Of a stretch of DNA of 64,000 bases, positions 2,203 through 40,591 are shown piece by piece. Location of the stretch: assembly GCA_047971315.1 (NCBI GenBank), contig JBKDZP010000004.1:5466-69465 (forward strand). Direction: 5' to 3'. The stretch is from Bacilli bacterium (GTDB lineage Bacteria > Bacillota_I > Bacilli_A > RF39 > UBA660). The first letter of the stretch is position 1. Every line of letters starts with the position of its first letter. Both the position numbers and the translations under genes were made by a program. Under the pieces are notes generated by a model. The model did no database searches. It was not told the DNA's origin and saw nothing but the letters and a program-made list of their open reading frames with translations.

Positions 2203-2231
2203 ATAATCACGCCCTCTCCTGCTGCAATTAA

Positions 2232-3640: not shown

Positions 3641-3648
3641 CCTTTCTT

Positions 3649-5893: not shown

Positions 5894-6106
5894 AATAACC
5901 TTGGTACCTAAAATGGTACCTAAAATAAATAAAAAGGCTGTGAAGCCTTATAAATAAACAAAAATGACCGGACTAGCCGGTCTTCAGGGGGTTTTTGTTT
6001 GTATTCTTAACTGAAAATCGTAAGAATACCTGCACGAATACCTCGTGCTATTATAATTATAAAATTTTTATTATTAAAAGTCAATTAAAAAATATAAATT
6101 TGAACA

Positions 6107-8089: not shown

Positions 8090-8110
8090 AATATCACCAT
8101 TTCTAACATC

Positions 8111-8139
8111 ATTATACAAAACATTTGTTCATATGTCAA
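8111..8139 (-). promoter_or_regulatory. Sigma-A-type promoter of recG.
   Basis: On the minus strand, TTGACA (8134-8139), an exact 17-nt spacer, then TATAAT (8111-8116). Confidence 0.55.
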
Positions 8140-8214
8140 ATCATATTTTTCGATATTTTAAATTTGCATAAAAAAAAGCTTGACAATTATAGCTTTTTCG
8201 ATTAGTATATAAAG

Positions 8215-8313
8215 CACCAGTTCGAAGAAATCGAGCTGGCGCTAGTATCACACTAGCCAACCCCTTTTTATTCTTTTATGAAGCTGTTCTCAGGGGGACA
8301 GTTTCTTTTTTTT
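8215..8313 (+). ncRNA. Candidate small RNA of about 100 nt with its own promoter and intrinsic terminator, in the recG-PFOR intergenic region.
   Basis: TTGACA at 8180-8185, a 17-nt spacer, then TAGTAT at 8203-8208. The transcript has three predicted hairpins: CCAGTTCGA/TCGAGCTGG, GCTAGT/ACTAGC, and GAAGCTG...CAGTTTC followed by a T9 run at 8305-8313. No protein-coding potential. Confidence 0.3.
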
Positions 8314-8405
8314 ATTCTTTTATGACTGTTCTCCTTATAAGTTAAAATGGTTAACTTAACTTATGAACAGAGTATAACATATGTAAAAACTTAATAATAT
8401 ATATT

Positions 8406-8440
8406 TTTATAAAAAAAAGTAAAGTTTACACTACTTTACT
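8406..8440 (-). terminator. Rho-independent terminator of the PFOR gene.
   Basis: On the minus strand, stem AGTAAAGT/ACTTTACT with a 6-nt loop, followed by a run of 8 U. The stem overlaps the stop codon. Confidence 0.6.
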
Positions 8441-11400
8441 CTTTTTCACTTAACATTTTATAATAATTATATCTTTCTATTGCTGATAATTTGTTTTGAT
8501 ATAATAAATTTTCTTTATTTTCCTTATTTACAATATCTAACATTTTAAATCTACTTTGAGTATTCAAAAAATCATTATATTGATTAAAATCTACATTTTT
8601 ACTATCTAAAATAAATTTTTTAGTTTCAGGATTATATCTAAATGTAAGAAAATATCCACAAGCTGTTGCTTGTTTTTCACATTCAACACTATTTTTTAAT
8701 CCACCTTCTATTCCATGAGAAATACATGGTGTATAAGCTATAATAATTGATGGCCCGTTATGTTGCTCAGCCTCTTTAAATGCTTTTATTACTTGTAACA
8801 TATTAGCTCCAATAGAAACTTGAGCAACATAAACATTTGGATAAGCTAACGCCATTTTTGATAAATCTTTTTTAGTAGTGTTTTTACCAGTTGATGCGAA
8901 TGATAAAACAGCACCTGTTGGACTTGATTTTGATGATTGACCACCAGTATTTGAATATACTTGGGAATCTAGAACTAAAATGTTAACATTATCATTACTA
9001 GCTAATACATGATCTATTCCACCAAATCCTATATCATATGCCCATCCATCTCCACCTATTGTCCAAATAGATCTTTTTTTTATAAATTCTTTAAGTTTAG
9101 ATAATTCTTCTGGAATTTCATATTTTTCCAAATTATCATATACTTCTTTTGTTATTTCATAATTATTATTATTTTCTAACCACTTATTAAATATTTCTTT
9201 ATTATTTTCGTTTTGATTATTTTTCATAATATTATAAATTCTTGTTTTTATTACATTATTACCAACTAATATTCCATATCCAAATTCAGCATTATCTTCA
9301 AATAATGAACTTGCCCAAGGAATAGTATATGGCATTGATGGACAACTTGCACCATATATTGAAGAACATCCAGTTGCATTTGCAATTATTAGTTGTTCAC
9401 CAAATAATTGAGTTAATAATTTTATATAAGCAGTTTCTCCACATCCTGCACATGCACCAGAAAATGTAAATTTTGGTTCACTAAATTGACTTCCAATTAC
9501 TGTATTGTTATTTATAATTTTTTTATCTTTAATATTTTGATCTAAGTAATTAAATATTTCTTGTTCCTTACTGTTTTTTTCTAAGAATAATTTTTCAAAT
9601 ATTAGGGCCTTATTATTAGATAATCCTGGACATATTTTTATACAAACACCACATCCTGTACAATCTTCTATTGATATTCCGATTATATAATAGAAGTCTT
9701 CTAATTCTTTGCCTTTTCCCTTGACACATTTTTTTTGAACATAATCTGGTGCTAAATTATATTCTTCCTCACTTAACAAATATGGTCTTATAACACCATG
9801 AGGACATACTAGTGAACATTGATTACATCTTATACAATTACTACTAATCCATTTTGGAACAAAATCACTTATTCCTCTTTTTTCTAAAGAAGATGTCCCA
9901 CCATCAAATGAACCATCATTATTTTTAACAAATTCACTTGTTTTAATTGAATATCCTTTTCTTTTAGATAATATATCAAAAATTGTATTATTCATATTTT
10001 CAACTTCATTTTCATTCGGTACAATATTTGTTATTTCTTTTAAATAATTATCTACTTCTTCAAGTGCTTGGAAGTTTGATTCAATAATTTTATCTCCAGC
10101 TTTTATAAATTTTTTACTTATGTATTTTTTTAATTCATTTGTCGCAAGATTTATATCAACTATCTTAGATATTTTTAATATTGCCATTTCCATTATCATA
10201 CTTATTTTATTTTGTAAGCCAACTTTTCTAGCTAATTCATATGCATTTATAATATATAATTTTATGTTTTTTTCCTGTAATACTTGATAATTTACTTTAT
10301 TCATATTTTCAAGTAAATCTTGCTCATTAGTTGTATTAATTAAACAAATTCCATTTTTTTCTAATTTATCTAGAATATCAAATTCTTTTAAATAACTTTC
10401 TTTAGATATAACAATAATACTTGGATTTTCAACATAATATGGTTTTCTTATTTTTTCTTTACCAAATCTTAAATGACTTATAGTTACTCCACCTGATTTT
10501 TTTGAATCATATTCAAAATATCCTTGAACGAAATTGCTTGTATTGTTACCTACTAAACTTATTAATGATTTAGAAGCACTAATCATTCCATCACTACCAT
10601 AGCCATATATTAGGATTTCATCTTCACTTTTGGTTTTAAAATCACAATCAAAGTCTAGACTAAGGTTAGTAACATCATCTTCAATTCCTATTGTAAAATT
10701 ATTTTTAGGTGAATCTAACATATCATAGATTGATTTAATTTGAGCAGGAGTAGTGTTTTTACTTGAAAGCCCATATCTACCACCAACTATATTAATATTT
10801 TTATCTTTAAGGATACTAATTACATCTAAATATAGTGGTTCTCCGACACTTCCATGTTCTTTAGTTCTATCTAATACAGCAATTGATTTAACTGTACTTG
10901 GTAAAACATTTAAAAAATATTTTGAACTAAATGGACGATATAAATGTACTTCTAATAATCCAATATCGCCTCCAAGAGCATCAATTGTTTCTTTAATTGT
11001 TTCATTAACTGAACCCATTGCTACAATTACTTTTGAGGCAGTACTACTTCCATAGTAGTTAAATGGTTTATAATTAGTATTGGCTAGCTCATTTATTTTT
11101 TCCATATATTTATTTACAATATCTGGTAGTTTATCATAAAAAATATTTTTAGCTTCCATTGCTTGAAAATAAATATCGTCATTTTGAGCTGTTCCCTTAG
11201 TTTTTGGAGCATTAGGATTTAAAGCTCTATTTCTAAATTCTTTTACTTTTTCTTTATTAAGCATTGATTCATAATCACTTTGTTCTAAAACTTCAATTTT
11301 ATTTATTTCATGACTTGTTCTAAATCCATCAAAAAAGTGTAAAAAAGGCATACTTGCTTCAATTGCTGAAAGATGCGAAATTCCAGCTAAGTAACTTGAA

Positions 11401-15510: not shown

Positions 15511-16263
15511 TTATACATATTTTCCAATATTTATTATATAATTATCTTTTTTTGTTTGTTTTTCTATTCCTATAAATTTATATTTACCATACTTTCTAAT
15601 ACCAAATATATCATTTTCTTTAAGAATATAGGAATTATTTGTTAGTATTTTATAATTTAAAATTATATCTTTATCATTTATTAATTCTAATATCTTAGAT
15701 CGATTTGTTTTTATTATTTTTGGTAATACTGCATCAATTCTAAATGAGGGAACTATTATTTGTTCTGTTACATATTTTTGTGCAACATTATTTAAAGTAT
15801 CAATTTCTACTTGTTCTAATGATACATTATATTTTCCTATTTTAACTAAATTTTGAGATAAATAATAGGAAATATGTTCTTTAACTACTATATACCAATT
15901 ATCATTAAATATTATGTCTCCAAATAAATTTTGATTTAAATTTAAAGCAAATAAGCTACCTAGTATATCTTGATGTCTTAGGTTATTATTTGTAGTTATT
16001 TTATAAATAATTATATTTGGACAACTAGTATATATTACATTTTTTTCACTATCAATTGATGGTTTATAAATTTGATAATTAGTTTTATTTTTATTTAGTA
16101 CACTAGTTACTAGTTGTAATTGTCTTGGGTCAAGAAAAGGTGTTGAACCACCTTTATTTATTTTTTCTATTTCATTTTTTATTAATATTTTATCTTCTTT
16201 ATTTAGTTCCATATTTTTCCATGAATTCATCATATGAAATTTGCTTATCAATATAACTTCCAT
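15511..16263 (-). CDS. Hypothetical protein with a C-terminal S4-like RNA-binding region (YlmH-like?). The true start is probably an internal Met.
   Basis: 250 aa. The C-terminus KILELINDKDIILNYKILTNNSYILKENDIFGIRKYGKYKFIGI is S4-like. The 5' 65 nt overlap the upstream ABC-F gene, which argues for a later start. Confidence 0.3.
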   Translation of the reverse strand: MEVILISKFHMMNSWKNMELNKEDKILIKNEIEKINKGGSTPFLDPRQLQLVTSVLNKNKTNYQIYKPSIDSEKNVIYTSCPNIIIYKITTNNNLRHQDILGSLFALNLNQNLFGDIIFNDNWYIVVKEHISYYLSQNLVKIGKYNVSLEQVEIDTLNNVAQKYVTEQIIVPSFRIDAVLPKIIKTNRSKILELINDKDIILNYKILTNNSYILKENDIFGIRKYGKYKFIGIEKQTKKDNYIINIGKYV

Positions 16264-17806
16264 CTTCTTTTAAAAGTATTATACGGTTACTAATTGTTTC
16301 AATTAATTGTTGATCAAATGTAGTAAATGCTAGTACACCATTAAAACTTTCTAAAGAATTATTTAAAGATGTAATCGCTTCAATATCTAAATGGTTTGTT
16401 GGTTCATCAAATAATAATACATTTGATTTTTCCAACATCATTTTAGAAAACATTAATCTTACCTTTTCTCCTCCAGATAATACTGATGTGTTTTTTAAGG
16501 CTTCTTCTTTAGAAAATAACATTCTACCTAAAAATCCTCTTACAAAACTTTCATCTTTATTTTCAGAGTAATTTCTTAAAAAATCAACTAATGTATAATT
16601 ATTATCAAAATATTTATCATGATTTTTAGCAAAGTATGATATTTTTGCATTTCCACCTACTTTAATTGTACCACTATCTGGTTCAATTTCACCTGCAAGT
16701 ATTTTTAATAATGTAGTTTTTCCAAGTTCGTTAGTTCCTAAAATAGCTATTTTATCATCTGGTTTAATTGTTAAGTTAATATTTTTTAATATTTCTTTTC
16801 CATCAATACTATAATTTACTTTTTCTAGTGTAATAACGTCTTTACCAACAGCTTTTTCAAACTCAAATTTAATAAATGGATATTTACGACTTGATGGTTT
16901 TATTTCATCTAGTACTATTTTTTCTAGTGATTTTTTTCTTGATGTTGCTTGTTTTGATTTTGATGCATTAGCAGAAAATCTTCTAATAAAGTCCTGGAGT
17001 TCTTTTATTTTTTCTTCTTTTCTTTTGTTTGAATCTCTCATTTGGCTTTGAATTAATTCACTTGATTGATACCAAAAATCATAGTTACCAACAAATAATG
17101 TTATTTTTTCATAGTCAATATCCACCATATGAGTACACACTTTATTTAAAAAATGTCTATCATGTGAAACAACTAATACAGTATTTTTAAAATTTATTAA
17201 AAATTCTTCTAACCAAAATATACTCTCAGCATCTAATCCATTTGTGGGTTCATCTAAAAGTAATATATCTGGATTTCCAAATAATGCTCTAGCTAATAAA
17301 ACTTTTACTTTATCTTTATCTTTTAATTCACCCATTAATGAACTATGATATTCGTTTACTAGTCCTAATCCTGATAAGAGTATTGAAGCATCACTTTCAG
17401 CTTGCCATCCATTTTTTTCTTCAAATCTAGCTTCTAATTCTCCTGCTTTTATACCGTCTTCCATACTAAAATCTGGTTTCATATATAATGCTTCTTTTTC
17501 TTTCATTATTGAATAAAGTTCTTCATCACCCATCATTACTGTTTCTAATACAGTGTTTTCATCAAATTCATGGTGATTTTGTTTTAAAACTGATAAACGT
17601 TCATTTTTTCCTATTATTACATTTCCCTTTGTTGAATCTATTTCTCCACTTAATATTTTAAGAAATGTAGATTTACCAGCTCCATTTGCGCCAATTATCC
17701 CGTAACAATTATCTCCAGTAAATTCTAAGTTTACGTCTTCAAAAAGGATTCTGCTACCGTATCTTAATCCTATATCATTTGCTTTTAACATATTATCTCT
17801 CCTCAA
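16199..17806 (-). CDS. ABC-F family ATPase (tandem ABC domains, no transmembrane domain).
   Basis: Two Walker A motifs (GANGAGKST and GTNELGKTT), two signature motifs (LSGG-like and SGGEKVRL), and D-loops LLLDEPTNGLD and LLFDEPTNHLD. Confidence 0.85.
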   Translation of the reverse strand: MRRDNMLKANDIGLRYGSRILFEDVNLEFTGDNCYGIIGANGAGKSTFLKILSGEIDSTKGNVIIGKNERLSVLKQNHHEFDENTVLETVMMGDEELYSIMKEKEALYMKPDFSMEDGIKAGELEARFEEKNGWQAESDASILLSGLGLVNEYHSSLMGELKDKDKVKVLLARALFGNPDILLLDEPTNGLDAESIFWLEEFLINFKNTVLVVSHDRHFLNKVCTHMVDIDYEKITLFVGNYDFWYQSSELIQSQMRDSNKRKEEKIKELQDFIRRFSANASKSKQATSRKKSLEKIVLDEIKPSSRKYPFIKFEFEKAVGKDVITLEKVNYSIDGKEILKNINLTIKPDDKIAILGTNELGKTTLLKILAGEIEPDSGTIKVGGNAKISYFAKNHDKYFDNNYTLVDFLRNYSENKDESFVRGFLGRMLFSKEEALKNTSVLSGGEKVRLMFSKMMLEKSNVLLFDEPTNHLDIEAITSLNNSLESFNGVLAFTTFDQQLIETISNRIILLKEDGSYIDKQISYDEFMEKYGTK

Positions 17807-17851
17807 CTTGTACTATTTTATCATATATAACATAAAAAAGTAAGATTTTTC

Positions 17852-20797
17852 TTACTTTATTTTTTCTAATTTAACACTTACTAATTTACTAACTCCAGAT
17901 TCTTGCATCGTAATACCATATAATACATCTGCATATTCCATTGTTTTTTTCTTATGTGTAATAAGAATAAATTGTGTTTTGCCTTTTAGCTTTTTTATAT
18001 ATTTTCCAAATGTATCAACATTTACTTCATCGAGTGCTGCTTCTACTTCATCTAAAACACAAAAAGGTACTGGTCTAGATTTCAATATTGCAAACAATAA
18101 ACTAATTGCTGTAAATGTTTTTTCACCACCTGATAATAATGAAATACTTGTTAATTTTTTTCCTGGAGGGGAAGCCACAATTTCAATTCCTGTTTCTAAT
18201 AGATTAGATGGATCAGTTAATCTTAAATCAGCAAATCCACCTTTAAATAACTCATTAAAAGTTTTAGAAAAATTTTCTTTTACAATGTTAAAAGTTGTAA
18301 TAAATTCTTCTTTCATCACTGTATCCATCTCTTCAATAATTTCCAATAAAGTATTTTCAGCATGTAATAAATCTTCTTTTTGATTTATTAAAAAATCATA
18401 TCTTTCTGCTACTTTATCATATTCTTCAATAGCACCTAAATTAATTACTCCTAAATCTTTAATTATATTTTTTAAGTTACTTACTTTATTTCTAGCAACT
18501 TCATCATCAATTTCTAATTTGTAATTTAATTTTGCTGATTCATAGGTTAAACTATACGTTTCATTTAATTTGTTTAATAGAGTATCTAGTTTAACATCCA
18601 TCCTGTTTACTTCTATTTCTAAATCTTTTAAAATTTTCGATTTTTCTTTATAAATACTATTTTCTTTTTTTAATGAAAACTCAAATTCTTCTAAATCACT
18701 TTTTATATTTGTTCTTTTTTTAATTATATTTTCTAAATTAATTTCTAAATCATTCTTTATTTTTAATTGTTCGTAGTATTTATTTATAATAATATCTTCT
18801 TCACTACTTAAATTATTATTTAAAATACCATCAATACCAGATATTTCATTTATAACTGTTTTTAAATTATTTTCTGATTCCATCAATAATTTATTTTTAT
18901 TTGAAATATATTCTTCATTATTAATTTTATCTTTAGTTAATAAATAAATTTTATCTTCAATTGATTTTAAATTATAATCACAAATATTAATTTTTTCTTC
19001 TAAATCTTTAATATCTGAAATAATTTTTGAATGTTCTTTCAAATAATTTTCTAATTCATATTTTTCAGAAATAATGCTTTTAGTTTTTAATAAGGTACCA
19101 CCAGTTAGTGACCCACCAATATGTAATAATTCACCATCTAATGTAACTATTTTATATTTATGATTTAATATTTTACTTATTTTTGTTGCATTTTCTATAT
19201 TATCTGTAATAATTACATTACCTAATTGATTTTCTATAATATTTTTATACATTGGATTAAATTTTATTAATTCACTAGCTATATTTATATACCCTATCTC
19301 ATTTTTTATTATATTTATAATATTACTTTCTATATATTTTGATTTAATAATATTTAAAGGAAAAAATGTTACTCTACCTAACTTATTTGTTTTTAAATAA
19401 TTAATAGCGTTTTTCGCACATTTATCATCATCAACTATTACATTATTACTATTTGCTCCTAGGGATGTTGTAATTGCTGTTGTATATGATTCTTCTACTT
19501 CAATTATATTTCCAATTGCATTATGAATACCATTTAATTTGGGATTTTCCAATACTTCTTTTACCCCATATGGTAGTAAACTATTATTTTCAATACTTGT
19601 TTTTAGATATTTTATTTTATTTTCTAATTCAGTTTTGTTAGATATTAGTTTTGTTAAATCAAATTCAAATTTATTTTTAATATTTTTTGTTTTATTTAAT
19701 TCGTTTTCTAATTGTTCAATATTAATAATTGTATTTTTTAATGTTTCATCTAAATTACTTATTTCCAAGTTTAGTGTATAAATATCACTGTCTAATTTTT
19801 TTGATGTTTCTTTTAAATCTAATGCTCTATTATGAAGAACTTTATCTTCTACTTCATATTTTTTTCTTTCAACTAATATTTTTTTTTCACTATTAATTTG
19901 TTCAACTAAAGTATTTTGATTTAATAATTGTTTTTGTAATCCACTAATATTTTTATCAAATTCTAAAATATTTTTATGAATTGTTTCGATTTTTGTTTCA
20001 TTGCTGTTAGAGTTAATTCCTAGTTCTATTAATTCTAAATTTAAGTTTTCAATTGTTTTTTTATTTTCTTGATAAGTATAGTTTATATTTGTTATATCAG
20101 TTGTTATTAAAGATATTTCTATATTTTCTAATTCTGATGCTTTTTCTTGATAAATCAATGCTTTTTCTTTTTGTTCTTTTAAAGGAACTACTTGATGTTC
20201 CAATTCATTAATAATATCTTCTACCCGATTCATATTATTATGAGTTTTTTCTAATTTTCTTAAAGCTTCTTCTTTTCTTTTTTTATATTTCAACACTCCA
20301 GCTGCTTCTTCTAATATTACTCTTCTCTCATTTGCTTTACTACTTATTATCTCATCAATTTTTCCTTGTGAAATAATATTAAAACTTTCCTTAGCAATTC
20401 CACTATCTAGTAAAATATCAGTAACATCTTTTAGTCTACATTTTTCATTATTAATTGAATATTCATTTGTACCATCTTGATATACTCTTCTTCTTATTTC
20501 TACTTCAGAATAGTCAAGTTTTAAGTATTTATCACTATTATCAAATATTAATGATACAGTTGCCATGTGCATGGTATTTCGAGATTTGCTACCAGAAAAT
20601 ATTACATCTGTCATATTTCCATCTCCTCTTAGAGACTTTACAGATTGTTCACCAAGAACCCATCTAATAGCATCAACTACATTACTTTTTCCACTACCAT
20701 TTGGTCCAACAACTCCAGTTATACCATTTTCCAAATCAATTGTTATTTTGTCTGCAAATGATTTAAATCCACTAGCAATTATTTTTTTTAAATACAT
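17852..20797 (-). CDS. smc: Chromosome condensation and segregation protein SMC. The start is probably MYLKKIIASGF.
   Basis: N-terminal Walker A (GPNGSGKSN), a long coiled coil, a hinge region, and a C-terminal LSGGEKTFTAISLLFA...LDEVEAALD. Confidence 0.85.
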   Translation of the reverse strand: MYLKKIIASGFKSFADKITIDLENGITGVVGPNGSGKSNVVDAIRWVLGEQSVKSLRGDGNMTDVIFSGSKSRNTMHMATVSLIFDNSDKYLKLDYSEVEIRRRVYQDGTNEYSINNEKCRLKDVTDILLDSGIAKESFNIISQGKIDEIISSKANERRVILEEAAGVLKYKKRKEEALRKLEKTHNNMNRVEDIINELEHQVVPLKEQKEKALIYQEKASELENIEISLITTDITNINYTYQENKKTIENLNLELIELGINSNSNETKIETIHKNILEFDKNISGLQKQLLNQNTLVEQINSEKKILVERKKYEVEDKVLHNRALDLKETSKKLDSDIYTLNLEISNLDETLKNTIINIEQLENELNKTKNIKNKFEFDLTKLISNKTELENKIKYLKTSIENNSLLPYGVKEVLENPKLNGIHNAIGNIIEVEESYTTAITTSLGANSNNVIVDDDKCAKNAINYLKTNKLGRVTFFPLNIIKSKYIESNIINIIKNEIGYINIASELIKFNPMYKNIIENQLGNVIITDNIENATKISKILNHKYKIVTLDGELLHIGGSLTGGTLLKTKSIISEKYELENYLKEHSKIISDIKDLEEKINICDYNLKSIEDKIYLLTKDKINNEEYISNKNKLLMESENNLKTVINEISGIDGILNNNLSSEEDIIINKYYEQLKIKNDLEINLENIIKKRTNIKSDLEEFEFSLKKENSIYKEKSKILKDLEIEVNRMDVKLDTLLNKLNETYSLTYESAKLNYKLEIDDEVARNKVSNLKNIIKDLGVINLGAIEEYDKVAERYDFLINQKEDLLHAENTLLEIIEEMDTVMKEEFITTFNIVKENFSKTFNELFKGGFADLRLTDPSNLLETGIEIVASPPGKKLTSISLLSGGEKTFTAISLLFAILKSRPVPFCVLDEVEAALDEVNVDTFGKYIKKLKGKTQFILITHKKKTMEYADVLYGITMQESGVSKLVSVKLEKIK

Positions 20798-20959
20798 AAA
20801 AAACCACTCATTTCTGCTATTTATTATACAGTAATAGTAGTTTATAAGCAAGTAATAGAGTTTTTAAAAATGTTACTCTTTTTTTATATTTAAGTACAAT
20901 ATTCAACATAAGTTTTAATCTAAAATAATAATATATAAAAACACTTTTTTAAAGTGTCT

Positions 20960-28855: not shown

Positions 28856-29232
28856 ATAGTGTGATTTTTATTTTTTATAAATTCAGTTAGAATTTTAGTT
28901 AATGCTCTTTTTTCTATTCTAGATACATAACTTCTTGATATTCCTAATTTTTTAGCAATTTCTTTTTGAGTTACCTCTTTTTGATTTTCTAAACCATATC
29001 TATTTATAATTATTTCTTTTTCTCTATCATTTAAAATACTTAAATATTTTTTTAGATAATTAATATTATTTTGATTATGTATATCCAAAGCAAAATCTGG
29101 ATTTGGAGTTTTTAATATATCTAATAATGAAATTTCATTACCTTCTTTATCAAAACCAATTGAATCATTTAGACTAATATTTTTACTGTTTTTTTTATCA
29201 CTTCTAAAATACATTAATATTTCATTTGCTAT
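28852..29232 (-). CDS. sigK: 3' segment of a split sigK gene (spoIIIC-like; SigK regions 3-4). The in-frame upstream part of the ORF table entry (to 29319) is element sequence.
   Basis: [18 protein letters not shown]...[45 protein letters not shown] is near-identical in pattern to B. subtilis SigK ([18 protein letters not shown] ... LDDREKEVI..RFGL...[26 protein letters not shown]). Confidence 0.8.
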   Translation of the reverse strand: [126 protein letters not shown]

Positions 29233-30931
29233 CTTCGCATTGTGGAACAAATTTCTTTTCGCTTGTATTATTTTCACCGTCATTTTCATTAAAAAAATTA
29301 ATGAATAATGTTTCTCCATCAGTTTTAACTGAATGTATTAAAGCTCTAAGTAATGTTCTTTTTATTTCTAATGATAAGCTATCAAAAGTAGTAAAGTATG
29401 TATTAATGATATTTAATATAATTTCAGCTTGTGTCTCGTCTAATATATTACTATTAGAACTACTATTTTTAACCTCATTAATTTTAATATATATTTCTTT
29501 GTTTTTATCTTTTAGTTCTTTAATTTGTATATTGACTCGATTTAAAGCTTCACCGTCCAAATATAGTATTTTGCTAATGTAATTTTGAATTTCTTCTTCA
29601 TTTTGTTTATATGTTTTTTCAAAAAGTCTTAACTCCATAATATTTTTATCTTCTTCTTTATATTTTCCTTTGGACATATCAATAAGTTTTTTATAAACTT
29701 TTCCTGTAGGTGCAATAAGTTCTTTTACAGTATTCATAACTAGACTATCAACTTCATTACCACTAACATTAGGACATGTACATTTAGATTTACGACTTTT
29801 TTCTTTTAGTTCACACATATAATTAAAAACTAATTGACCTTCTTTATTAGTATAGTTTTTTAATTTAGGACGCATATAAGAACCACAATGAGAGCAACGA
29901 ATTAAACCAGATAGTAAAGCGTTATTTTTAGTCGGCTTTCTGTATCGTTTGTTTCCGTTTTGTTCAATTAATTCTTGAATTTCAATCCATTCTTTACCTG
30001 ATATGATTCCTTTATGCATACCAACAGAGATAATCCAGTCTTGGATATCGCGTTCATTAGTCGTTTTTCCTTTAATTTGCTCTGTTTTATTATAAACCAT
30101 TAATCCATATTTACCATTAAATTTATCTTCGTCTGCATATATTTCTACACCTAATTCTAAAAAATAATTATAAATATCTTTATCGGCAACAACATATACA
30201 GGATTTTGTAAAATATTTTTAATAGCAAACCTAGAAAAATCTATATTATTTTTAGTTTTTATATCATGTTGTATAAGATAAGTTTCTAATTTAGTTTGCG
30301 ATTTTAACTCTTTGTATTTTATATATATATTTTTAATAATATCAATTTCATCTTTTATAGGTGTTAATTTAAATAAACTTCTTTCTTTACCATCAATACT
30401 TATGTTTTTAACTTTCTCTGATTTAAAGCCTGTTGGAGTAGTACCACCAAGCCATCTACCAGTTTTTGCTAACTCTAACATATTATCACGGATTCTTTCT
30501 GCAATAGTATCTCGTTCTAATTGAGCAAAAACGCTAGCTATCATTAACATTGCTGTTCCTAATGGAGTAGAGGTGTCAAAATTCTCTGTTATTGAAATAA
30601 AGCTAACATCATATTGTTGTAGTGTATCTTTCATATTCGCAAAGTCAGACACATTACGACTTATTCTATCTAACTTGTAACAACATACACCTTTTATTTT
30701 TTTATTTTTAATATCATTAATCATAGATTGAAACTGTGGTCTTCTAGTATTATATCCCGTAAAGCCTTCATCTTCATATACCACAACTTCTTTTTCAATA
30801 TCTTCTATATTATATTTATATTGTAGGTGCTTTTTGCAAAGTTCTACTTGATTACCAACGCTATCTCCTTTGCCAGTAAATTTAGATTTTCTAGAGTATA
30901 TAGCCCATTTTTTGTTATTATCTTTATTCAT
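29222..30931 (-). CDS. Large serine recombinase (SpoIVCA-like) of the sigK intervening element.
   Basis: 569 aa. N-terminal resolvase domain (AIYSRKSKFTGKGDSVGNQ), a recombinase domain, and a zinc ribbon (CSHCGSYMRP...CELKEKSRKSKCTC). Its stop codon lies inside the recombination core at the element/sigK junction. Confidence 0.85.
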   Translation of the reverse strand: MNKDNNKKWAIYSRKSKFTGKGDSVGNQVELCKKHLQYKYNIEDIEKEVVVYEDEGFTGYNTRRPQFQSMINDIKNKKIKGVCCYKLDRISRNVSDFANMKDTLQQYDVSFISITENFDTSTPLGTAMLMIASVFAQLERDTIAERIRDNMLELAKTGRWLGGTTPTGFKSEKVKNISIDGKERSLFKLTPIKDEIDIIKNIYIKYKELKSQTKLETYLIQHDIKTKNNIDFSRFAIKNILQNPVYVVADKDIYNYFLELGVEIYADEDKFNGKYGLMVYNKTEQIKGKTTNERDIQDWIISVGMHKGIISGKEWIEIQELIEQNGNKRYRKPTKNNALLSGLIRCSHCGSYMRPKLKNYTNKEGQLVFNYMCELKEKSRKSKCTCPNVSGNEVDSLVMNTVKELIAPTGKVYKKLIDMSKGKYKEEDKNIMELRLFEKTYKQNEEEIQNYISKILYLDGEALNRVNIQIKELKDKNKEIYIKINEVKNSSSNSNILDETQAEIILNIINTYFTTFDSLSLEIKRTLLRALIHSVKTDGETLFINFFNENDGENNTSEKKFVPQCEDSK

Positions 30932-31117: not shown

Positions 31118-32230
31118 TTAAAAGAAATCAATTATTGATGAAATATTAATAGTATCCAAATTATTTGCTTTAATAAATACTTTTAATGCTTTATCCTCAA
31201 CTTCTTTTAATATTATATTATAAGTTATACCATTATCTAACTTTGGAGCATAGAAACACGCAAAATCTCCAGACATAAAACCTAAATGATTATTATCTTT
31301 ATCAAGAACCTTAATGGCGTTTTTATCATATTGATTGTTATTGTCTCGTTCAAGATATAATTCATCATCAATTAACAGCTTTGAAACATGTTGTGCTCGC
31401 TCTTTAAAAGTTATCCCTACAACAGTTATAATATTGCTCATAATATTAATTTTTTCATTTTCCCAGTTAGGAATAATACTGCTGTATTTTTTATTTAACA
31501 AATAATATATATCACTATCAATTATTATTAATTTTTCGTTCGGAAATTTTTCTAAAAACAACTTTGTATTTTGCAAACTTCTATAATCAATATGTCCTTT
31601 TACTTCAATAAGTGTTTTGTTTTTTAAAATAAAGTCAGGTACATATAACTGTGAGGCATATAGATAGCTAGAGTTTTTAGAATCTAATTGAAATCCATCA
31701 GTTTCATACTCAAACTCAATATTTAAATGCTTTAAAGTTCTAGCTACATTTGCTTCCCATGATGAACGAACTTCCATCTGTAAATCATCTCTAAATTCAT
31801 TTTTAAACTGTTGACTATAATTGTTTTCTTCATGATTAGTTAAAGCATTATCTAAATTTTTATCATTTACAGTTTCCTTATCTTTTTTAACTAAATTATT
31901 AATAAACTCGTCATTGTCTTCTGGCCACTTTGAATAACTACAATTAGGAAATGTTGAGCATCCATAAAAGTATTCATTAGTTTTTGTTTTCTTTACTAAC
32001 AAATCATTTCCACACTCTGGACATTTTCCAAACACTATATTACTATTGTCGTTTTCTTTTTCAATATATTTACAATTAGGATAATTAGAGCAACTGGTAA
32101 ATTCTCCAAATCTACCACGTCTTCTGACTAAATCATTTCCACATTTAGGACATTTCCCTACAATGATAGGCTTACTCTCTATATTAGTTTTATGAATATT
32201 AGTTAATTTCATAAAAGCACCTCCATACAA
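31118..32230 (-). CDS. Fusion protein: two TopoIA-type zinc ribbons, a PD-(D/E)xK-like nuclease and a C-terminal HIRAN domain.
   Basis: Two CPxCG...C..C ribbons (CPKCGNDL..CSNYPNC and CPECGNDL..CSTFPNC). A middle YVPDFILKNKTLIEVKGH region is D...ExK-like. The C-terminus reads VVGITFKER...YDKNAIKVLDKDNNHLGFMSGDFACFYAPKLDNG, a HIRAN pattern. Confidence 0.5.
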   Translation of the reverse strand: MYGGAFMKLTNIHKTNIESKPIIVGKCPKCGNDLVRRRGRFGEFTSCSNYPNCKYIEKENDNSNIVFGKCPECGNDLLVKKTKTNEYFYGCSTFPNCSYSKWPEDNDEFINNLVKKDKETVNDKNLDNALTNHEENNYSQQFKNEFRDDLQMEVRSSWEANVARTLKHLNIEFEYETDGFQLDSKNSSYLYASQLYVPDFILKNKTLIEVKGHIDYRSLQNTKLFLEKFPNEKLIIIDSDIYYLLNKKYSSIIPNWENEKINIMSNIITVVGITFKERAQHVSKLLIDDELYLERDNNNQYDKNAIKVLDKDNNHLGFMSGDFACFYAPKLDNGITYNIILKEVEDKALKVFIKANNLDTINISSIIDFF

Positions 32231-34945: not shown

Positions 34946-35131
34946 TTGAAAGTGGTGGTAAACTTACCTTTTGAAGAAGACGATAAAAACATTTTCGAAG
35001 ATAAGATTGCTACTTTTCATGCAACCTTACTTCTAGAAACAATAGATAAACTAGATATCAATAATCAAAACAAGAAAATAATTTTAAATCATATTCTTAA
35101 TAAACTTAAAGAATTAAATTTAAATAATTAA
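34946..35131 (+). CDS. Hypothetical small protein.
   Basis: 61-aa ORF. A terminator hairpin (CCTATAT/ATATAGG + T-run) follows at 35138-35168. Confidence 0.3.
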   Translation: MKVVVNLPFEEDDKNIFEDKIATFHATLLLETIDKLDINNQNKKIILNHILNKLKELNLNN

Positions 35132-35201
35132 AAATAAGCGCCTATATTGTTAGATATAGGTGTTTTTTGATGATATAATGTATATATATGGGGTGATAAT
35201 A

Positions 35202-36581
35202 TTGAAAAAGAATGTGGAACATGGAGTCGTTAAATATAAAGACAAAGATTATACTTACTCTTATAAAGATAATATTATTACACTGACGCCAAAAGAATTA
35301 GAACCATATTGGCAAAGTATGTTTAAAAAATTTAAGAGAGAAGAAAAAGAAGAAAATGTTTATGGAATAACTAATTCAAACTTCCCAGTAGCATTTATAA
35401 AACTTAATTTAATAGATATAGGTGGCGGAGTTTTGCAAGCTTTTGTTCCTGCATACATTGTTGCAAACGCAAATACAGTATCGCCATTACCAGAAATAAA
35501 TAATTTTAAATCAATGACTTTTTATGGTGATTGCATTAATTCTTTATATAATCCTAAACAAATGATTAAGGATTCAGATGTAACAAAAAAATACAAGCCT
35601 TATATGAAATTTAAACATCCTAAAGAAGTTATAAAAAACATACTAGTTAACAAACTTGACTTCATATTTAGGATTACATGGGAGTTTCCTATTAAAGATA
35701 AAGTACCTGCTGTGCTTTTAAAGTCTTTGTTAGAAATAAAGTTTGATAGTAAAAAAACTATTGATGAAATTATAGAATACTATCAGCAAGTTAAAATGCT
35801 GTTTAGTTTCATTAATAATAGGCACTATATAGAATTTTCAGACATATTATTAAAAGCTGATATGTTTGTTGAAGACTTTCCTGATAAAAAAGTTAGAAAT
35901 GTTGGAGTAAGCTATAATTTATATATTATTCTTCCAAAAGATGTTAAAGTTGATTTACCTAATTCAATATATGAAACAAGGTTGAATAAGATTGAAAATC
36001 AATTTGAGAATTTATTTAATACTTTAAATAAATGTGGTGGTTATAATTTACATTTTCCAGATAATCAATATGATGAAGACCACGTTGATATAGATAAATT
36101 TTTAAGAGTTGCATCCGCATTTGAATCATGGTTTGATATTAATTTTGATGACTTCAAATCTGATACTGACTTATTATATAAAATTTTAAAAAATGATGTG
36201 CTAAAATTTATTGCAGAAAGAGGAAAAAATACAAATGCCACTGGTAGAGACTATTTAAAACGTTTTAAGAATGAAATAGAACGTCAGGAGGGTACTTTGT
36301 TAGAGCAATTGTTGTATTCATATCAAATCTTTGAAAATTGTGTCAAAAAGGTTAAAGAACGAATATATAGGCATTATAATTTAGATGATGTAAAAATAAA
36401 TGATATCTTTCTAGCTTTAGCAAAAAAAAGAAATCGCTTATCGCATGGCGATATAAACGATTTAGGATTTTCAAAAGAAGAGATAGTTGCATTTATAATT
36501 TTAGAGAGATTAATTCAATGTTTAATATATTATAAGGCAGAATTTAGCTTAGATTCAATAAGCGAAATAGTTGATAAATAG
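35202..36581 (+). CDS. HEPN-domain abortive-infection-like protein (ApeA-like N-region plus a C-terminal Rx4H HEPN motif). The TTG start at 35202 is favoured over the table's ATG at 35160.
   Basis: GGGTGA lies 5 nt before TTG. The ATG at 35160 sits inside a TGATATAAT extended -10 element (35171-35179). The C-terminus LAKKRNRLSHGDINDL carries the R-x4-H HEPN catalytic signature, as in Abi_2 (AbiD/AbiF) and ApeA-HEPN proteins. Confidence 0.5.
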   Translation: MKKNVEHGVVKYKDKDYTYSYKDNIITLTPKELEPYWQSMFKKFKREEKEENVYGITNSNFPVAFIKLNLIDIGGGVLQAFVPAYIVANANTVSPLPEINNFKSMTFYGDCINSLYNPKQMIKDSDVTKKYKPYMKFKHPKEVIKNILVNKLDFIFRITWEFPIKDKVPAVLLKSLLEIKFDSKKTIDEIIEYYQQVKMLFSFINNRHYIEFSDILLKADMFVEDFPDKKVRNVGVSYNLYIILPKDVKVDLPNSIYETRLNKIENQFENLFNTLNKCGGYNLHFPDNQYDEDHVDIDKFLRVASAFESWFDINFDDFKSDTDLLYKILKNDVLKFIAERGKNTNATGRDYLKRFKNEIERQEGTLLEQLLYSYQIFENCVKKVKERIYRHYNLDDVKINDIFLALAKKRNRLSHGDINDLGFSKEEIVAFIILERLIQCLIYYKAEFSLDSISEIVDK

Positions 36582-36586
36582 GAGGA

Positions 36587-37729
36587 ATGACTATGATTAT
36601 ATATAATTTAATGGACATAGCAAGGAAACTTAAAATTGATTTTGATGGAATTACTTCAAAAATTGAGCATAATGGTCAAAAAGGTGATACTCGAGAAGAA
36701 TTGTTAAAAGAAAGTCTAGCGCAATTTATACCACAAAAATATAGTATAGGAAATGGAATAATAGTAGATAGCAATTTGGTTCAGAGTAAGCAACAAGATT
36801 TTATTATCTATGACGGATTTAATAGTCCTCTTATGTTGAAAAAGCAATCAATGCAAGTTGTACCAATCGAGAGTGTATATTGCACAATCGAAATAAAGTC
36901 TACATTAACAAAAACCGAATTAGAAAAGTGTGTAGCTAATATTAAAAGTGTTAGAGAATTAGAAAAAGTTTGTTTACAAACATCAGCTATCGTATATGAA
37001 AACGCAAATAATACTATTGGATTTGTTTTTGCCTATACTTCTGATAGTTCTTTAGACACAATTTATGAAAATTTAGTAGAAATGAATAAATTGATAGAGC
37101 CACATCACCAAATCAGTGGAATATGCATTTTAGATAAGGGATTAATATTAAACGTTTCTAAAAATGGAATGAATCAATTAGAATTATATCCAAATAAAAA
37201 TAGTACTCTATGTTGTTCTGATAATCCTTTAGAAAATAATTTGTATTTGTTTTATTTATTAATACTTCAGCATTTAAATATTTCAAAATTATTGCCACCA
37301 GATTTAATTAAATATGCCGAGAAACAAAATGCGTTTAATATTAGGTCACATATGAAAATAGAATTATTACCAGATGATGGAAAAGTAAATATAATGGATG
37401 GTTTAACTTTTGATGTGAAAGATGTAAAAAAAATAAATGAAATACATTCACGAATGACACCCTTTTTTAATGGTAATTGTAGTGAGCAAGAAACTGAAAA
37501 GCATCTTGTTGAAAATATAATTCCTATGCTTGAAACATTTAGTAAGTACCAAACCGTTGGCGGTGTTATAGGAGGTAATAATAATGAACCAATTTTACCT
37601 TCTGATTTTGAATTTATCAAAACAACTTATTGTAAAAAAACGAATAATGAAAAAATAACCGAGGAAGAATTGGTAAAATATAATAACTTAATTACATCAT
37701 TTGTTTCAAAAAAAGATTCAACGAATTAA
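36587..37729 (+). CDS. PD-(D/E)xK nuclease-like protein (possibly DUF6602-like), co-operonic with the HEPN gene.
   Basis: 5-bp gap to the upstream gene. The N-terminus reads GDTREELLKESLAQFIPQKYSIGNGIIVDSNLVQSKQQDFIIYD...VVPIESVYCTIEIKSTL, which gives the D...E-x-K restriction-endonuclease-fold signature. Confidence 0.4.
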   Translation: MTMIIYNLMDIARKLKIDFDGITSKIEHNGQKGDTREELLKESLAQFIPQKYSIGNGIIVDSNLVQSKQQDFIIYDGFNSPLMLKKQSMQVVPIESVYCTIEIKSTLTKTELEKCVANIKSVRELEKVCLQTSAIVYENANNTIGFVFAYTSDSSLDTIYENLVEMNKLIEPHHQISGICILDKGLILNVSKNGMNQLELYPNKNSTLCCSDNPLENNLYLFYLLILQHLNISKLLPPDLIKYAEKQNAFNIRSHMKIELLPDDGKVNIMDGLTFDVKDVKKINEIHSRMTPFFNGNCSEQETEKHLVENIIPMLETFSKYQTVGGVIGGNNNEPILPSDFEFIKTTYCKKTNNEKITEEELVKYNNLITSFVSKKDSTN

Positions 37730-37851
37730 ATTTCTTGAATTTTTTTAATATACTTATGATACTACATTTCAAATAATTGAAAATAAAAAATATTATTTTT
37801 ACATGCAGACATTTTAAATGATATAATATTCTTAGTAAAGTAAGGTGAATT

Positions 37852-39576
37852 ATGAATATATTAGAAGAGTTAAATAAAAAAGGTGTTACTTTAAACATTA
37901 GGTACTGTGGAGCTGATGATATGTTAACTGGGTTTATGGCAAAAGAATTGCTAGAAAATCAAGATGATATTTTAAAGCATTATCAACATAATAAAATTGA
38001 TAATGTTAATGAATATATAGATTATATATTTTTAGAAATATTAATGAAATTTTTTGAAATTGTACCACTAATCATTATTGAAGAAAAAAGAGAATCATTT
38101 AAGCAATTTTTAGATAAATGTAAAATAGTATATGACAAATATATAAAGAAAGACGTTATATTTTTTATAAAAAACCATTATTTAGATATTTATAGTTATA
38201 AAGATAATGAAGACAGCAGTTTATTTTTAGAACTTGATTTAAAAGATTATACTTCTATTTTTATTGGTATGAATTTTAATTCATTTTCTATAACAATAAT
38301 TGATTATGTTATTACAATTGCAACTTTTGATGTTATAGATAGTTTTGAAATTTGGGGAAAATATTTTTATAAAAATCCTAATCAACTAAACAATCTTTTT
38401 AATGAAGAAAATATTAAAAAAGTTTTTAACATGAGGTTTTCAGAAGTTAGTGATATTCTAGAAGCTTTAAAACCGAATAAAAAGTTTTCGACTATAATTT
38501 CTAATACAATTGATATTATATATGGAATAGTGAAGGAAAACTACTTTAATCCGAAAGACGACACAGGAATTTGGCAAAGTTATTATATGTTAAATGATAC
38601 ATTAGTCTTTTTAAAAAAAATGAACTCAACTTATATTTACGAGCTTGAAAAAGAATTATATCAAATAGAAATAAAGTTTAATGAAAATTTAATGAAAACA
38701 GGTTACACAAGTACTTTTGAGTACAACTTAAAACCATTTGTAGAGTTTTTTGAAAACAAAACCAGTCCATGGGAAGTTAGGATTGTTTACTTAACCCATT
38801 TTCAAGATAAAGAAGGTAATTTATGTAGTTTTTTAGAACATGGTGCTAAATCTAATATAAAAGCTTTGAGCGATGAAATTGCTAGAAAAAATCCTGGAAC
38901 TGATGACTATTTTACTAGTTGGAGGTTAAGGAATTTATCATTACAGATATTTGAAATAAAAGCACGCATAATGTCTATATTTCAAAAAAAAGAAAATGTT
39001 AGTGAATATATTTCTGATATATATGGTGAGTTAAAGTATATTTGTGAAAATAACAATACTACAATGGAACTAGAAGAATTAACTGATAATGTGGAGATGC
39101 TATCACAATATTTAGCTGATTTGTTTATTAATTTATCGACCGAGAAATCTACAGAAATGACAATAAAAAATACTATTTATGGATGTTCAATCTTTGTATG
39201 TAGTTTAATAGAAAAAGTTCTTCGTATTATTTATAAAAATAGTTTAAGGGAAATATTATATATACCCGATTCTGGTATTACATTAGGTACATTACTTAAG
39301 GAAGAAGATAAAAATAATAGTATTATAATTGACATATTGGGTAAGGAGCAAATAAAGTGCCTTAGATATTTTTTACATAAAACTGAAAATGGAATTGGTG
39401 ATAATATAAGAAATGATTTGGCTCACTTAAATGGTAGAACTCCAAGACGGTTAAATTATGATTTAATTACTGAACTACTTTCATATTTAAGCTCTATACT
39501 AAATAGTTGCGTATTATATTATCAAAGACAAACAAATAATAAGTCAAAGGAGTTAGATTCTATTGAAAACAGCTAA
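37852..39576 (+). CDS. Large protein with a C-terminal HEPN (DUF4145-like, RN..AH motif) domain.
   Basis: 574 aa. The C-terminus GIGDNIRNDLAHLNGRTPRRL carries R-x4-H. It has its own promoter (TTTACA ... TGATATAAT at 37819-37827) and AAGGTGA ribosome-binding site. Confidence 0.45.
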   Translation: MNILEELNKKGVTLNIRYCGADDMLTGFMAKELLENQDDILKHYQHNKIDNVNEYIDYIFLEILMKFFEIVPLIIIEEKRESFKQFLDKCKIVYDKYIKKDVIFFIKNHYLDIYSYKDNEDSSLFLELDLKDYTSIFIGMNFNSFSITIIDYVITIATFDVIDSFEIWGKYFYKNPNQLNNLFNEENIKKVFNMRFSEVSDILEALKPNKKFSTIISNTIDIIYGIVKENYFNPKDDTGIWQSYYMLNDTLVFLKKMNSTYIYELEKELYQIEIKFNENLMKTGYTSTFEYNLKPFVEFFENKTSPWEVRIVYLTHFQDKEGNLCSFLEHGAKSNIKALSDEIARKNPGTDDYFTSWRLRNLSLQIFEIKARIMSIFQKKENVSEYISDIYGELKYICENNNTTMELEELTDNVEMLSQYLADLFINLSTEKSTEMTIKNTIYGCSIFVCSLIEKVLRIIYKNSLREILYIPDSGITLGTLLKEEDKNNSIIIDILGKEQIKCLRYFLHKTENGIGDNIRNDLAHLNGRTPRRLNYDLITELLSYLSSILNSCVLYYQRQTNNKSKELDSIENS

Positions 39577-40591
39577 TATAAGTAGAAACAATCATTTTGT
39601 TTCACAAATGTATCTTGATGCCTGGAAAAATACTAACAATAAAGTCATGGTGTATGATTTACTAGTTCCAAATGAAAGGGTACCAATATGGACTCCTAAG
39701 TCCACAAAAAGTGTTGGTAGTATGGATAGTTTATTCGTAAGACTTAAGCATGACAAAGAAATAGATGATATAGAAAAATGGTTTTCAACAGAATATGAAT
39801 ATCCTGCTAAGGATGTATTAGAAAAAGTGATTAATGAAGATAGAATTAGTGAAGAAGAATGGCATAAATTAATTGATTTTGTTGCTTGCCATATTGTTAG
39901 GTCACCATCATTTCTAATAAGAACTTTAGAAACAGCTAAAAAAGATTGTATTCCAATTTTTGAAGAGGAAGCCAAAGAAATTCCAGAAAAGATTAAAAAT
40001 AAAATTAAAAAATCGGTTGCAAAAAAAGATTACGATGATGAACTATTTCCATTAAAAGTAACCAATATTGGTGACGATGAAACTGGTGAAAATAGTTTAT
40101 ATAAAGTAGAGACAATATTTGGAAAGCAATTCTATTTGTGGATAATGAAACACTTGCTAGGAAACACATGTAAGATTTTACATAAGCATAAGTGGTCAAT
40201 TATAACAGTAGACGAAAAAGTAATTTTACCAACTAGTGACAATCCTGTTGCATGTATTAATTATAACGATGAAAATGATTATAATTTTGTTGGAGGTTGG
40301 GGACGCAAAAACAGTAATATTTTGTTTCCTATTTCACCAAATAAAATATTATATACACAGGTTGGCACTAAACGTATTCCAAGAATAAAAGCTACTTATG
40401 AAATGAGTCTAATATTCAAAAAAATTATAGTTGAAAATTCATATAAATGCATAATTTCAAATTTTAATGATGATGAAATTCCTAAGATAAAACCAAGAGT
40501 AGTAGATTTAAATATTTTTTTGGAGGAAAAAGAGAAATGGAAAGATTTTCAAAAAAATTATATTGAAAAAGAATCAGAATTTATAAAATAA
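39563..40591 (+). CDS. DUF4238-family protein (the family used by the single-gene Rst_DUF4238 anti-phage system), translationally coupled to the upstream HEPN gene.
   Basis: The N-terminus NNHFVSQMYLDAWKN matches the DUF4238 hallmark (HYVPQFYL.(N/R)F). It overlaps the upstream ORF by 14 nt. Confidence 0.5.
   Translation: MKTANISRNNHFVSQMYLDAWKNTNNKVMVYDLLVPNERVPIWTPKSTKSVGSMDSLFVRLKHDKEIDDIEKWFSTEYEYPAKDVLEKVINEDRISEEEWHKLIDFVACHIVRSPSFLIRTLETAKKDCIPIFEEEAKEIPEKIKNKIKKSVAKKDYDDELFPLKVTNIGDDETGENSLYKVETIFGKQFYLWIMKHLLGNTCKILHKHKWSIITVDEKVILPTSDNPVACINYNDENDYNFVGGWGRKNSNILFPISPNKILYTQVGTKRIPRIKATYEMSLIFKKIIVENSYKCIISNFNDDEIPKIKPRVVDLNIFLEEKEKWKDFQKNYIEKESEFIK

Follow-up and report, generated by a model that had tools for sequence, protein, structure and literature searches.

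A mobile-element gene pair encoding a short ApeA-like HEPN protein and a NucC-fold DUF6602 protein: a candidate dual-nuclease anti-phage cassette in a Bacilli genome

A pair of tightly linked, co-oriented genes was analyzed in a 64,000-nucleotide (nt) stretch of contig JBKDZP010000004.1 (assembly GCA_047971315.1, positions 5,466 to 69,465), hereafter the window, from an AT-rich Bacilli metagenome-assembled genome (MAG) of the Bacillota with ~25% G+C. Gene 1 encodes a short ApeA-like protein with a C-terminal HEPN domain, and gene 2 encodes a long form of the DUF6602 family with a NucC-type nuclease fold. A preliminary description of this DNA had presented the pair as a strong candidate for a novel two-gene defense system. 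Here, the architecture of the locus, the domain composition of both proteins, and the genomic settings of their relatives were used to evaluate that proposal. Neither protein represents a new kind: gene 1 is an ApeA-superfamily member, and gene 2 falls, together with Damona, in the NucC/DUF6602 group. What is new is the recognition of a large family of short ApeA-like proteins, its recurrent occurrence in operons with DUF6602 DNases of the long form (in a different branch, the operon partner is a HEPN_LA2681 protein), and the testable idea that a DNase and an RNase sensing DNA fragments could form a circuit. All coordinates refer to the window.

Architecture of the locus

The block of small genes upstream of the pair is closed by an intrinsic-terminator-like hairpin on the + strand (35138..35168), seen in the sequence and by RNA folding as an 11-bp stem with a 4-nt loop (35138-35162) followed by U6. 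The fold of 35128-35172 has a free energy (dG) of -15 kcal/mol (z = -5.7), a stability that no shuffled sequence out of 200 reached; a simple terminator scan did not pick up the hairpin at 35138-35162. Overlapping this hairpin and continuing past it is a putative sigma-70-type promoter with an extended -10 element (35151..35179, + strand), assigned by consensus match alone, in which a -35 element, TAGATA at 35151, is followed by a 17-nt spacer and by TG-n-TATAAT ending at 35179 (10 of 12 matches, TG present). Both the terminator and the extended -10 promoter of the preliminary description are thus present.

Gene 1 (35202..36581, + strand; 459 amino acids [aa]) starts with TTG, preceded by a ribosome-binding site (RBS), GGGGTG, at 35190-35195. 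The mechanically called open reading frame (ORF) extends from 35160 to 36581, and because its GTG at 35160 lies upstream of the -10 element, TTG 35202 was taken as the true start; the same start is used in the NCBI model P0001 (459 aa, 100% identity and coverage) and in homologues. The TAG stop codon (36579-36581) is overlapped by AGGAGG (36580..36585, + strand), the RBS of gene 2, so that there is no room for an intergenic promoter or terminator. The first ATG of gene 2, at 36587, would leave the 5-nt gap reported earlier. A second ATG, at 36593, is the likely start, since AGGAGG overlaps the gene 1 stop codon and stands 7 nt from this ATG, and it agrees with the NCBI model P0034 (378 aa) and with the MFIYNL N-termini of homologues; with it, the gap widens to 11 nt and gene 2 spans 36593..37729 (+ strand; 378 aa). 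RNA folding of the junction (36560-36600) gave no stable structure. With neither a hairpin nor space for a promoter between them, the two genes form, by sequence layout, a single transcription unit. Downstream of gene 2, RNA folding revealed no terminator-like hairpin (z = +0.8), and the downstream limit of the pair is set by a strong promoter-like site (TTTACA, 18 nt, TG-n-TATAAT; 37798..37827, + strand) serving a following module that encodes a 574-aa protein and a DUF4238 protein.

The pair lies in a serine-recombinase element beside a DUF4238 gene, in line with the mobile-element location proposed earlier. DUF4238 is also mentioned in a paper on defense genes of prophage hotspots. In order, the element comprises a gene for a large serine recombinase (29222-30931, - strand), a gene for a protein with zinc-ribbon, endonuclease I, and HIRAN regions, an XRE repressor gene, small helix-turn-helix (HTH) genes, and the pair, followed 3′ by the gene for the 574-aa protein, the overlapping DUF4238 gene, and an HTH gene, beyond which lie gyrA and gyrB. 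The backbone is shared by a sister element (L066-68), which is also located near a GyrA/ParC-type gene. Because the sister element retains the pair without the 574-aa/DUF4238 module, the pair acts as a separable cargo unit.

The two encoded proteins

The gene 1 protein consists of a β-rich, ApeA_NTD1-like N-terminal domain (~aa 1-245; 35202..35936, + strand), presumed to be the sensor and oligomerization part, and a helical C-terminal HEPN domain (~aa 255-459; 35964..36578, + strand); in its AF2 model, the N-terminal half is mostly strands and the helical half comprises ~205 aa. The HEPN domain contains the motif LAKKRNRLSHGD, with R410 to H415 at nt 36429-36446 (R410-N-R-L-S-H415-G at 36429-36449). 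Pfam detected the two ApeA-type domains below threshold and in collinear order, ApeA_NTD1 at aa 48-204 (E 1.6e-4; 21.7 bits, cut-off 25.5) and then HEPN_Apea at aa 302-451 (E 0.02; 15.8 bits, cut-off 24.4; profile positions 2-135 of 136). Gene 1 had no match in PADLOC-DB v2 at E<=1, nor did four of its relatives at E<=0.1; searches of gene 1 against NCBIfam and PHROGs gave no matches, and a sequence search against the PDB gave none.

The wider family favors both ApeA models. The relative P0010 (38% identity to gene 1) clears the ApeA_NTD1 cut-off with 28.4 bits. Close relatives of gene 1 are few, forming 33 clusters of 455-470-aa proteins with 33-86% identity that derive exclusively from metagenomes or MAGs; in these, R410, N411, H415, and G416 are invariant, as is E308 in a conserved SAFESWFD helix. 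A profile of this clade retrieved 608 representatives, clustered at 50% identity, at E<=1e-3 (285 at E<=1e-10) among 1.84 billion sequences, and the best 150 of the 608 are nearly all 440-480 aa long and matched over their full length. In a Pfam scan of 105 diverse representatives, HEPN_Apea was matched by 27 (best 6.8e-8) and ApeA_NTD1, at E<0.01, by 14 (best 9e-11), while each other family, including other HEPN types, was matched by at most 4. R410 and H415 are the sole invariant columns across these 105 proteins, with the N at least 90% conserved, and the R-x4-H signature originally noted in gene 1 is thus more than a chance motif. The ApeA-type domains expected for gene 1 agree with its sub-threshold, collinear matches and with the preference of the wider family for the two ApeA models.

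Characterized ApeA is a single-protein anti-phage system that cuts tRNA anticodon loops, builds rings (decamers or dodecamers) from HEPN dimers, and is activated by a ligand whose binding pocket lies between its N-terminal and HEPN domains (bioRxiv 10.64898/2026.01.26.701840). The ligand of Ec2ApeA is a 5′-phosphorylated deoxydinucleotide, thought to be a product of DNA degradation during infection, and Ec1ApeA answers to a different ligand (bioRxiv 10.64898/2026.01.26.701840). A second preprint described cleavage of RNA-phage genomes by Ec1ApeA without cell killing, and neither ApeA preprint reported an operon partner. Gene 1 resembles ApeA in having a putative ApeA_NTD1-type N-terminal domain that precedes a putative Apea-type HEPN domain with Rx4H, an occurrence in defense or restriction-modification (R-M) settings, relatives found as stand-alone genes, and an expected action of ligand- or trigger-gated RNA cleavage. 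In contrast to the studied ApeA proteins, it has ~459 aa instead of ~580-600 aa, a model with two domains instead of three (N 1-198, Mid 199-309, and HEPN 335-583 in Ec2ApeA), scores that miss the Pfam cut-offs and the PADLOC ApeA models, and a co-transcribed DNase gene. Because it is ~125 residues shorter and lacks the three-domain build, gene 1 is best classified, from these comparisons, as a divergent, short relative within the ApeA superfamily and not as a canonical ApeA. The recognition of this large short-form family (608 representatives at 50% identity, the best-matching listed being ~450-470 aa), which eludes current defense-annotation profiles, is new.

The gene 2 protein combines a nuclease domain (~aa 1-245; 36593..37327, + strand) with a C-terminal extension (~aa 250-378; 37340..37726, + strand), the latter a candidate regulatory or sensor domain. 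It contains the segments QQDFIIYD and ESVYCTIEIKS and matches Pfam DUF6602 with an E of 2.7e-30, in agreement with the restriction-endonuclease fold and DUF6602 membership anticipated from the sequence. In PADLOC, where gene 1 found no counterpart, gene 2 matched the Cas-associated PD_DExK model (1.5e-39) and two NucC effector models (8.4e-31 and 4e-27; aa 9-229). Likewise, phmmer aligned gene 2 with the NucC structures from Serratia, Vibrio, and E. coli (6e-17 to 1e-8; Serratia NucC 5.6e-17), and the DUF6602 family profile matched NucC at 2e-27. The first ~250 residues of the gene 2 AlphaFold model (predicted local distance difference test [pLDDT] 82.5) superpose on NucC along its entire length (Foldseek E 3e-16, probability 1.00, template-modeling [TM] score 0.75-0.80 normalized to NucC) and share its restriction-endonuclease-derived fold. 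Both proteins have the ID-x30-E-x-K arrangement and an N-terminal H-x-G-x-x-G-x-x-x-E motif.

In the ungapped phmmer alignment, D69 (36797-36799), E100 (36890-36892), and K102 (36896-36898) of gene 2, which are invariant in the DUF6602 family, correspond to the NucC active-site residues D73/E104/K106. Of the residues that bind cyclic tri-adenylate (cA3) in NucC (Arg53, Tyr81, and Thr226), the same alignment maps the first two, and gene 2 differs at both, with Asn77 in place of Tyr81, the adenine-stacking residue, and Lys49 in place of Arg53. Past residue 124, in the region of the NucC gate loop with its His136/Tyr141 latch, gene 2 is unalignable and indels occur across the family, so the conserved latch is lacking. 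Also unlike NucC, gene 2 has an added domain of ~130 aa (residues 250-378), which is mostly helical and poorly conserved; outside the nuclease domain, neither Pfam nor the PDB gave a match. Neither a CD-NTase nor Cas10 was seen among the PADLOC and Pfam matches listed for the other 47 ORFs of the window (the PADLOC alignment scan covering 25 of 45 families), nor was a cyclase seen in any of ~60 related loci.

The DUF6602 label spans both a 243-aa true NucC in an operon of a cyclic-oligonucleotide-based antiphage signaling system (CBASS) and ~360-390-aa long forms that stand alone on plasmids and small elements. Damona is a single-gene DUF6602 defense system with anti-phage activity from integron cassettes of Vibrio cholerae (bioRxiv 10.1101/2024.07.02.601686). 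Gene 2 resembles Damona in that DUF6602 is also matched by Cas-associated PD-DExK and CBASS small-endonuclease profiles, and in its location on mobile DNA without a cyclase partner. Compared with Damona by description only, gene 2 differs in its Bacillota/gut-metagenome clade, its ~130-aa C-terminal extension, and the ApeA-like operon partner in its lineage. These alignments and models point to gene 2 as a stand-alone, cyclase-independent relative of NucC, of the long DUF6602 form and akin to Damona.

Among DUF6602 matches, the sole fusions of this domain are to a serine hydrolase domain: six long-form proteins of 559-570 aa (P0046, P0049, P0072, P0073, P0083, and P0111; loci L036, L038, and L039) carry DUF6602 followed by a C-terminal serine hydrolase, PF06821, and one cluster of this fusion holds 190 member sequences.

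Recurrence of the pair and reading of the cassette

Co-occurrence of the two genes, a check proposed at the outset, was found in three further settings. In the sister element (L066-68), the genes have the same order with a 14-nt gap and share 86% (ApeA-like) and 84% (DUF6602) identity with their counterparts in the window. Locus L008, with a related element backbone (HTH, sigma70_r2, PadR, and HAAS), also has the same order, with a 37-nt gap and identities of 33% and 68%, respectively. The order is reversed in L054-56 and L069-71, where DUF6602 precedes the ApeA-like gene by 19-99 nt and the identities to the window proteins fall to ~21% (ApeA-like) and 44-45% (DUF6602). These latter loci belong to GC-richer organisms and to a defense island, with type I HsdR and T5orf172, that is unrelated to the window element. 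The ApeA-like protein of the reversed-order island (468 aa, motif RAQVSH) is nevertheless aligned with gene 1 over its full length by hhalign (98.9%, E 1e-17, 430 columns). In every paired setting, the genes are on the same strand, with gaps of 11-99 nt. Allelic replacement of the L008 ApeA-like gene was considered as an explanation for its lower identity (33% vs 68%) and is unneeded, as pairs of clade 2 diverge alike (65% vs 85%), the ApeA-like gene diverging about two-fold faster than DUF6602.

Most relatives of either gene are unpaired or lie beside other defense genes. Twenty DUF6602 lineages (defined at 70% identity) were sampled, ~11 of which had usable flanks; an ApeA-like neighbor was present in 2 of these ~11, and a DUF6602 neighbor in 3 of ~8 sampled ApeA-like lineages. 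The commonest long-form DUF6602 proteins are encoded alone, adjoining TnpV/MobC/relaxase genes or a serine recombinase gene, and solo DUF6602 genes occur on plasmids, downstream of type I R-M genes, and where small mobilizable elements have their edges. In clade 1, ApeA-like genes are found either solo (L005) or in a gut-Clostridia hotspot after queH, followed variably by RhuM and/or YhcG; those of clade 2 are located between a type III R-M methylase gene and Fic, and elsewhere alone. A 457-aa relative of gene 1 on Bacillus thuringiensis plasmids is also solo. Assuming at most a 1% chance per lineage, the adjacency has a roughly estimated p of ~1e-2 to 1e-3, an estimate to be read with the caveats that both families are cargo of the same small Bacillota element classes and that the independent events are probably two. 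Both families are rare, and their adjacency looks non-random. With most relatives of each family occurring without the other, the pairing is read here as recurrent but facultative and not as an obligate two-component machine. No fusion of the two families was present among the best 150 of the 608 ApeA-like representatives or among the DUF6602 matches. Scans of viral contigs found two distant DUF6602 loci only, the broad ApeA-like alignment being too diverse to serve as a seed.

Other neighbors of ApeA-like genes were also recorded. In L072 and L074-L076 (4001-6936 in each), a clade-2 ApeA-like gene is followed after 24 nt by a gene for a 507-508-aa HEPN_LA2681 protein; this arrangement occurs in two genomic contexts, beside TnpV, and the ApeA-like protein has 36% identity to that of L056. 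HEPN_LA2681 may therefore be a second recurrent partner, giving two HEPN proteins per operon. The gut-Clostridia hotspot (L001-L004, L006, and L021-L028, ~6000-9400 in each) is a variable site 3′ of a QueH/acetyltransferase gene, in which the ApeA-like gene is followed by RhuM, YhcG/DUF1016 (PDC-S02), both, or fragments; L028 has its ApeA-like gene split over three ORFs, which makes it a likely pseudogene. YhcG/DUF1016 was rejected as a specific partner, given that the downstream gene of the hotspot varies (RhuM, YhcG, both, or neither) at gaps of 150-240 bp and that YhcG is itself the PADLOC single-gene candidate PDC-S02.

The reading favored here, held with slightly more confidence than doubt, is that the pair is a co-transcribed dual-nuclease anti-phage cassette composed of two modules that are each able to act alone, because both families have single-gene defense members (ApeA and Damona). 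By analogy with ApeA, the gene 1 protein would most likely dimerize through its HEPN domains and be held inactive, to be switched on by a trigger that binds away from the active site; it would then cleave anticodon loops of tRNAs, or else other RNAs, and thereby halt translation. The gene 2 protein would most likely cut DNA non-specifically once infection switches on its variable C-terminal domain or changes its oligomeric state, so that one promoter would supply an abortive or restrictive response at both the RNA and the DNA level. In this reading, the gene structure, the domain and fold assignments, the catalytic residues, the mobile-element setting, and the recurrence of the pair are observed, whereas the defense function, the substrates, the triggers, and the independence of the two proteins are inferred. 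The same single-gene members weaken the original proposal of a strong novel two-gene system, as do the many unpaired relatives and the lack of support for mutual dependence of the two proteins. Type III CRISPR loci join a ligand-gated HEPN RNase to a ligand-gated PD-(D/E)xK DNase (NucC or Can). The likeness of the pair to such ancillary sets (Csm6/Csx1 HEPN RNases) is a conceptual analogy only; unlike them, the pair has no CARF/SAVED sensor, cyclase, or CRISPR array, and its HEPN protein is of the ApeA type. Nor does the locus resemble a HEPN-MNT pairing, as no MNT domain was found in four Pfam-scanned locus proteins and the partner of gene 1 is a PD-(D/E)xK nuclease.

Several observations weigh against this dual-nuclease, two-module reading. 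Gene 1 falls below the curated Pfam cut-offs and has no PADLOC match, its structural model is only moderately confident (pLDDT 70), and fold searches with that model gave nothing decisive. The 11-nt junction of the two genes suggests translational coupling. Moreover, at least two apparently independent lineages carry the pair, in opposite order and with tight spacing and strong divergence; such recurrence is higher than would be expected if two rare families had simply been stacked, and it points to some functional link.

The main rival reading, considered rather improbable, is a genuinely coupled two-component system. In one version, the gene 2 DNase, once triggered, would degrade DNA to 5′-phosphorylated deoxydinucleotides or deoxyoligonucleotides, and binding of these products in the ApeA-like pocket would activate the HEPN RNase, creating a self-amplifying abortive circuit from DNA to RNA; in another, sensing would fall to the ApeA-like protein, which would in turn license the DNase. 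The first version draws on the identity of the Ec2ApeA activators, which are 5′-phosphorylated deoxydinucleotides and DNA-degradation products, but NucC leaves DNA pieces of ~50 bp instead of dinucleotides (its product DNA being of that size), and the Ec1ApeA ligand is not a deoxydinucleotide. Coupling in general is consistent with retention of the pair through strong divergence (33%/68% in L008) and reversed order (~21%, full-length homologous), with the short same-strand gaps of 11-99 nt, and with the ApeA-like genes lying 24 nt 5′ of HEPN_LA2681 in two contexts, which suggests frequent partner use. The scarcity of partners (only 2 of ~11 informative DUF6602 and 3 of ~8 ApeA-like lineages), the single-gene defense members of both families, and the absence of a two-domain fusion among the best 150 of 608 ApeA-like representatives or the DUF6602 matches speak against it. 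A broader and still less probable generalization is that short ApeA-like RNases sense alarms and are wired, through their operons, to a second effector, which in this locus would be a NucC-like DNase that makes the nucleotide signal.

Two further explanations concern whom the pair serves and how gene 2 is activated. The pair could act for the mobile element itself, whether by addiction, by exclusion, or by fighting competing elements; the targets of the two nucleases would be rival plasmids, integrative and conjugative elements (ICEs), or cells that lose the element. Both families reside almost exclusively on plasmids and on small integrative or mobilizable elements, in the vicinity of serine recombinases, TnpV/MobC/relaxase genes, or insertion sequence (IS) elements, and HEPN proteins are common as toxins (PMC3710099). 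However, nothing antitoxin-like accompanies the pair (neither an MNT nor a small ORF alongside), the neighbors of these genes in different loci are classic defense genes (R-M, DUF4238, KAP NTPase, T5orf172, and PDC-S02), and ApeA and Damona act against phages, making an element-serving role improbable. Least credible, and in our judgment very improbable, is that gene 2 is a true cA3-activated NucC whose cyclase (CBASS or type III CRISPR) is encoded elsewhere in the genome, with gene 1 an unrelated neighbor. Matches to the PADLOC NucC effector models (8e-31 and 4e-27), the shared fold, and the existence of true NucC proteins with a DUF6602 annotation in CBASS operons would fit this explanation, but the replacement of Tyr81 by Asn77, the non-conserved gate-loop latch with its indels, the extra C-terminal domain of ~130 aa, the failure to find a cyclase in the 64-kb window or in any of ~60 related loci, and the solitary travel of long-form relatives on small mobile elements do not.

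Since ApeA was reported in 2026 to respond to deoxydinucleotides from degraded DNA, an operon of an ApeA-like RNase and a DNase provides a direct test of whether a defense system can produce a DNA-derived alarm signal of its own. If the RNase is fed by the DNase, the pair would represent a cyclase-free, self-generated second-messenger circuit leading from DNA degradation to translational shutdown. If the genes are independent, as in the favored dual-nuclease reading, the pair would be a clean case of small Bacillota elements stacking RNA- and DNA-targeting single-gene defenses under one promoter.

Other genes of the element and of related loci

Directly 3′ of the pair, a second candidate two-gene module occupies 37852-40591 (+ strand). 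Its 574-aa protein matched no family and has a HEPN-like C-terminal R-N-D-L-A-H near aa 520; its gene overlaps by 14 nt the DUF4238 gene, the product of which was matched by Pfam DUF4238 (3e-27) and by PADLOC DUF4238-Pers (8.5e-11). Kinship of the 574-aa protein with the ApeA-like or HEPN_LA2681 proteins was considered and set aside, no similarity being detectable. Also within the element, the gene adjoining the serine recombinase gene (31118-32230, - strand) encodes a 370-aa protein of unusual architecture, with two topoisomerase-type zinc ribbons and HIRAN, together with a region similar to phage endonuclease I that is below the cut-off (E 4e-6).

Elsewhere in the window (16202-20851, - strand), 535-aa and 999-aa ATPases match PADLOC mad3 at 9e-40 and 5e-67, with weaker PADLOC matches to mad8, LmuB, and GajA; these matches may reflect generic ABC/SbcC-type similarity rather than defense. 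An SMC_N Pfam match (6e-66), without assignment to an ORF, was also obtained among the 47 window ORFs scanned.

Additional genes adjoin the pair in the related loci. In L069-L071 (5448-7373), the reversed pair is followed 3′, after a 40-nt gap, by a gene for a Metallophos phosphoesterase and by one for a 378-aa protein with weak PADLOC PDC-M03A matches (4e-10), and these two genes may be further members of the island operon. In L008, an ADP-ribosylglycohydrolase gene and a gene for a 401-aa protein with a weak NucS_C-like match (2002-4147) flank the pair on one side and a 962-aa KAP-family NTPase (7473-10361) is encoded on the other, suggesting that several defense candidates are stacked in one cargo slot.

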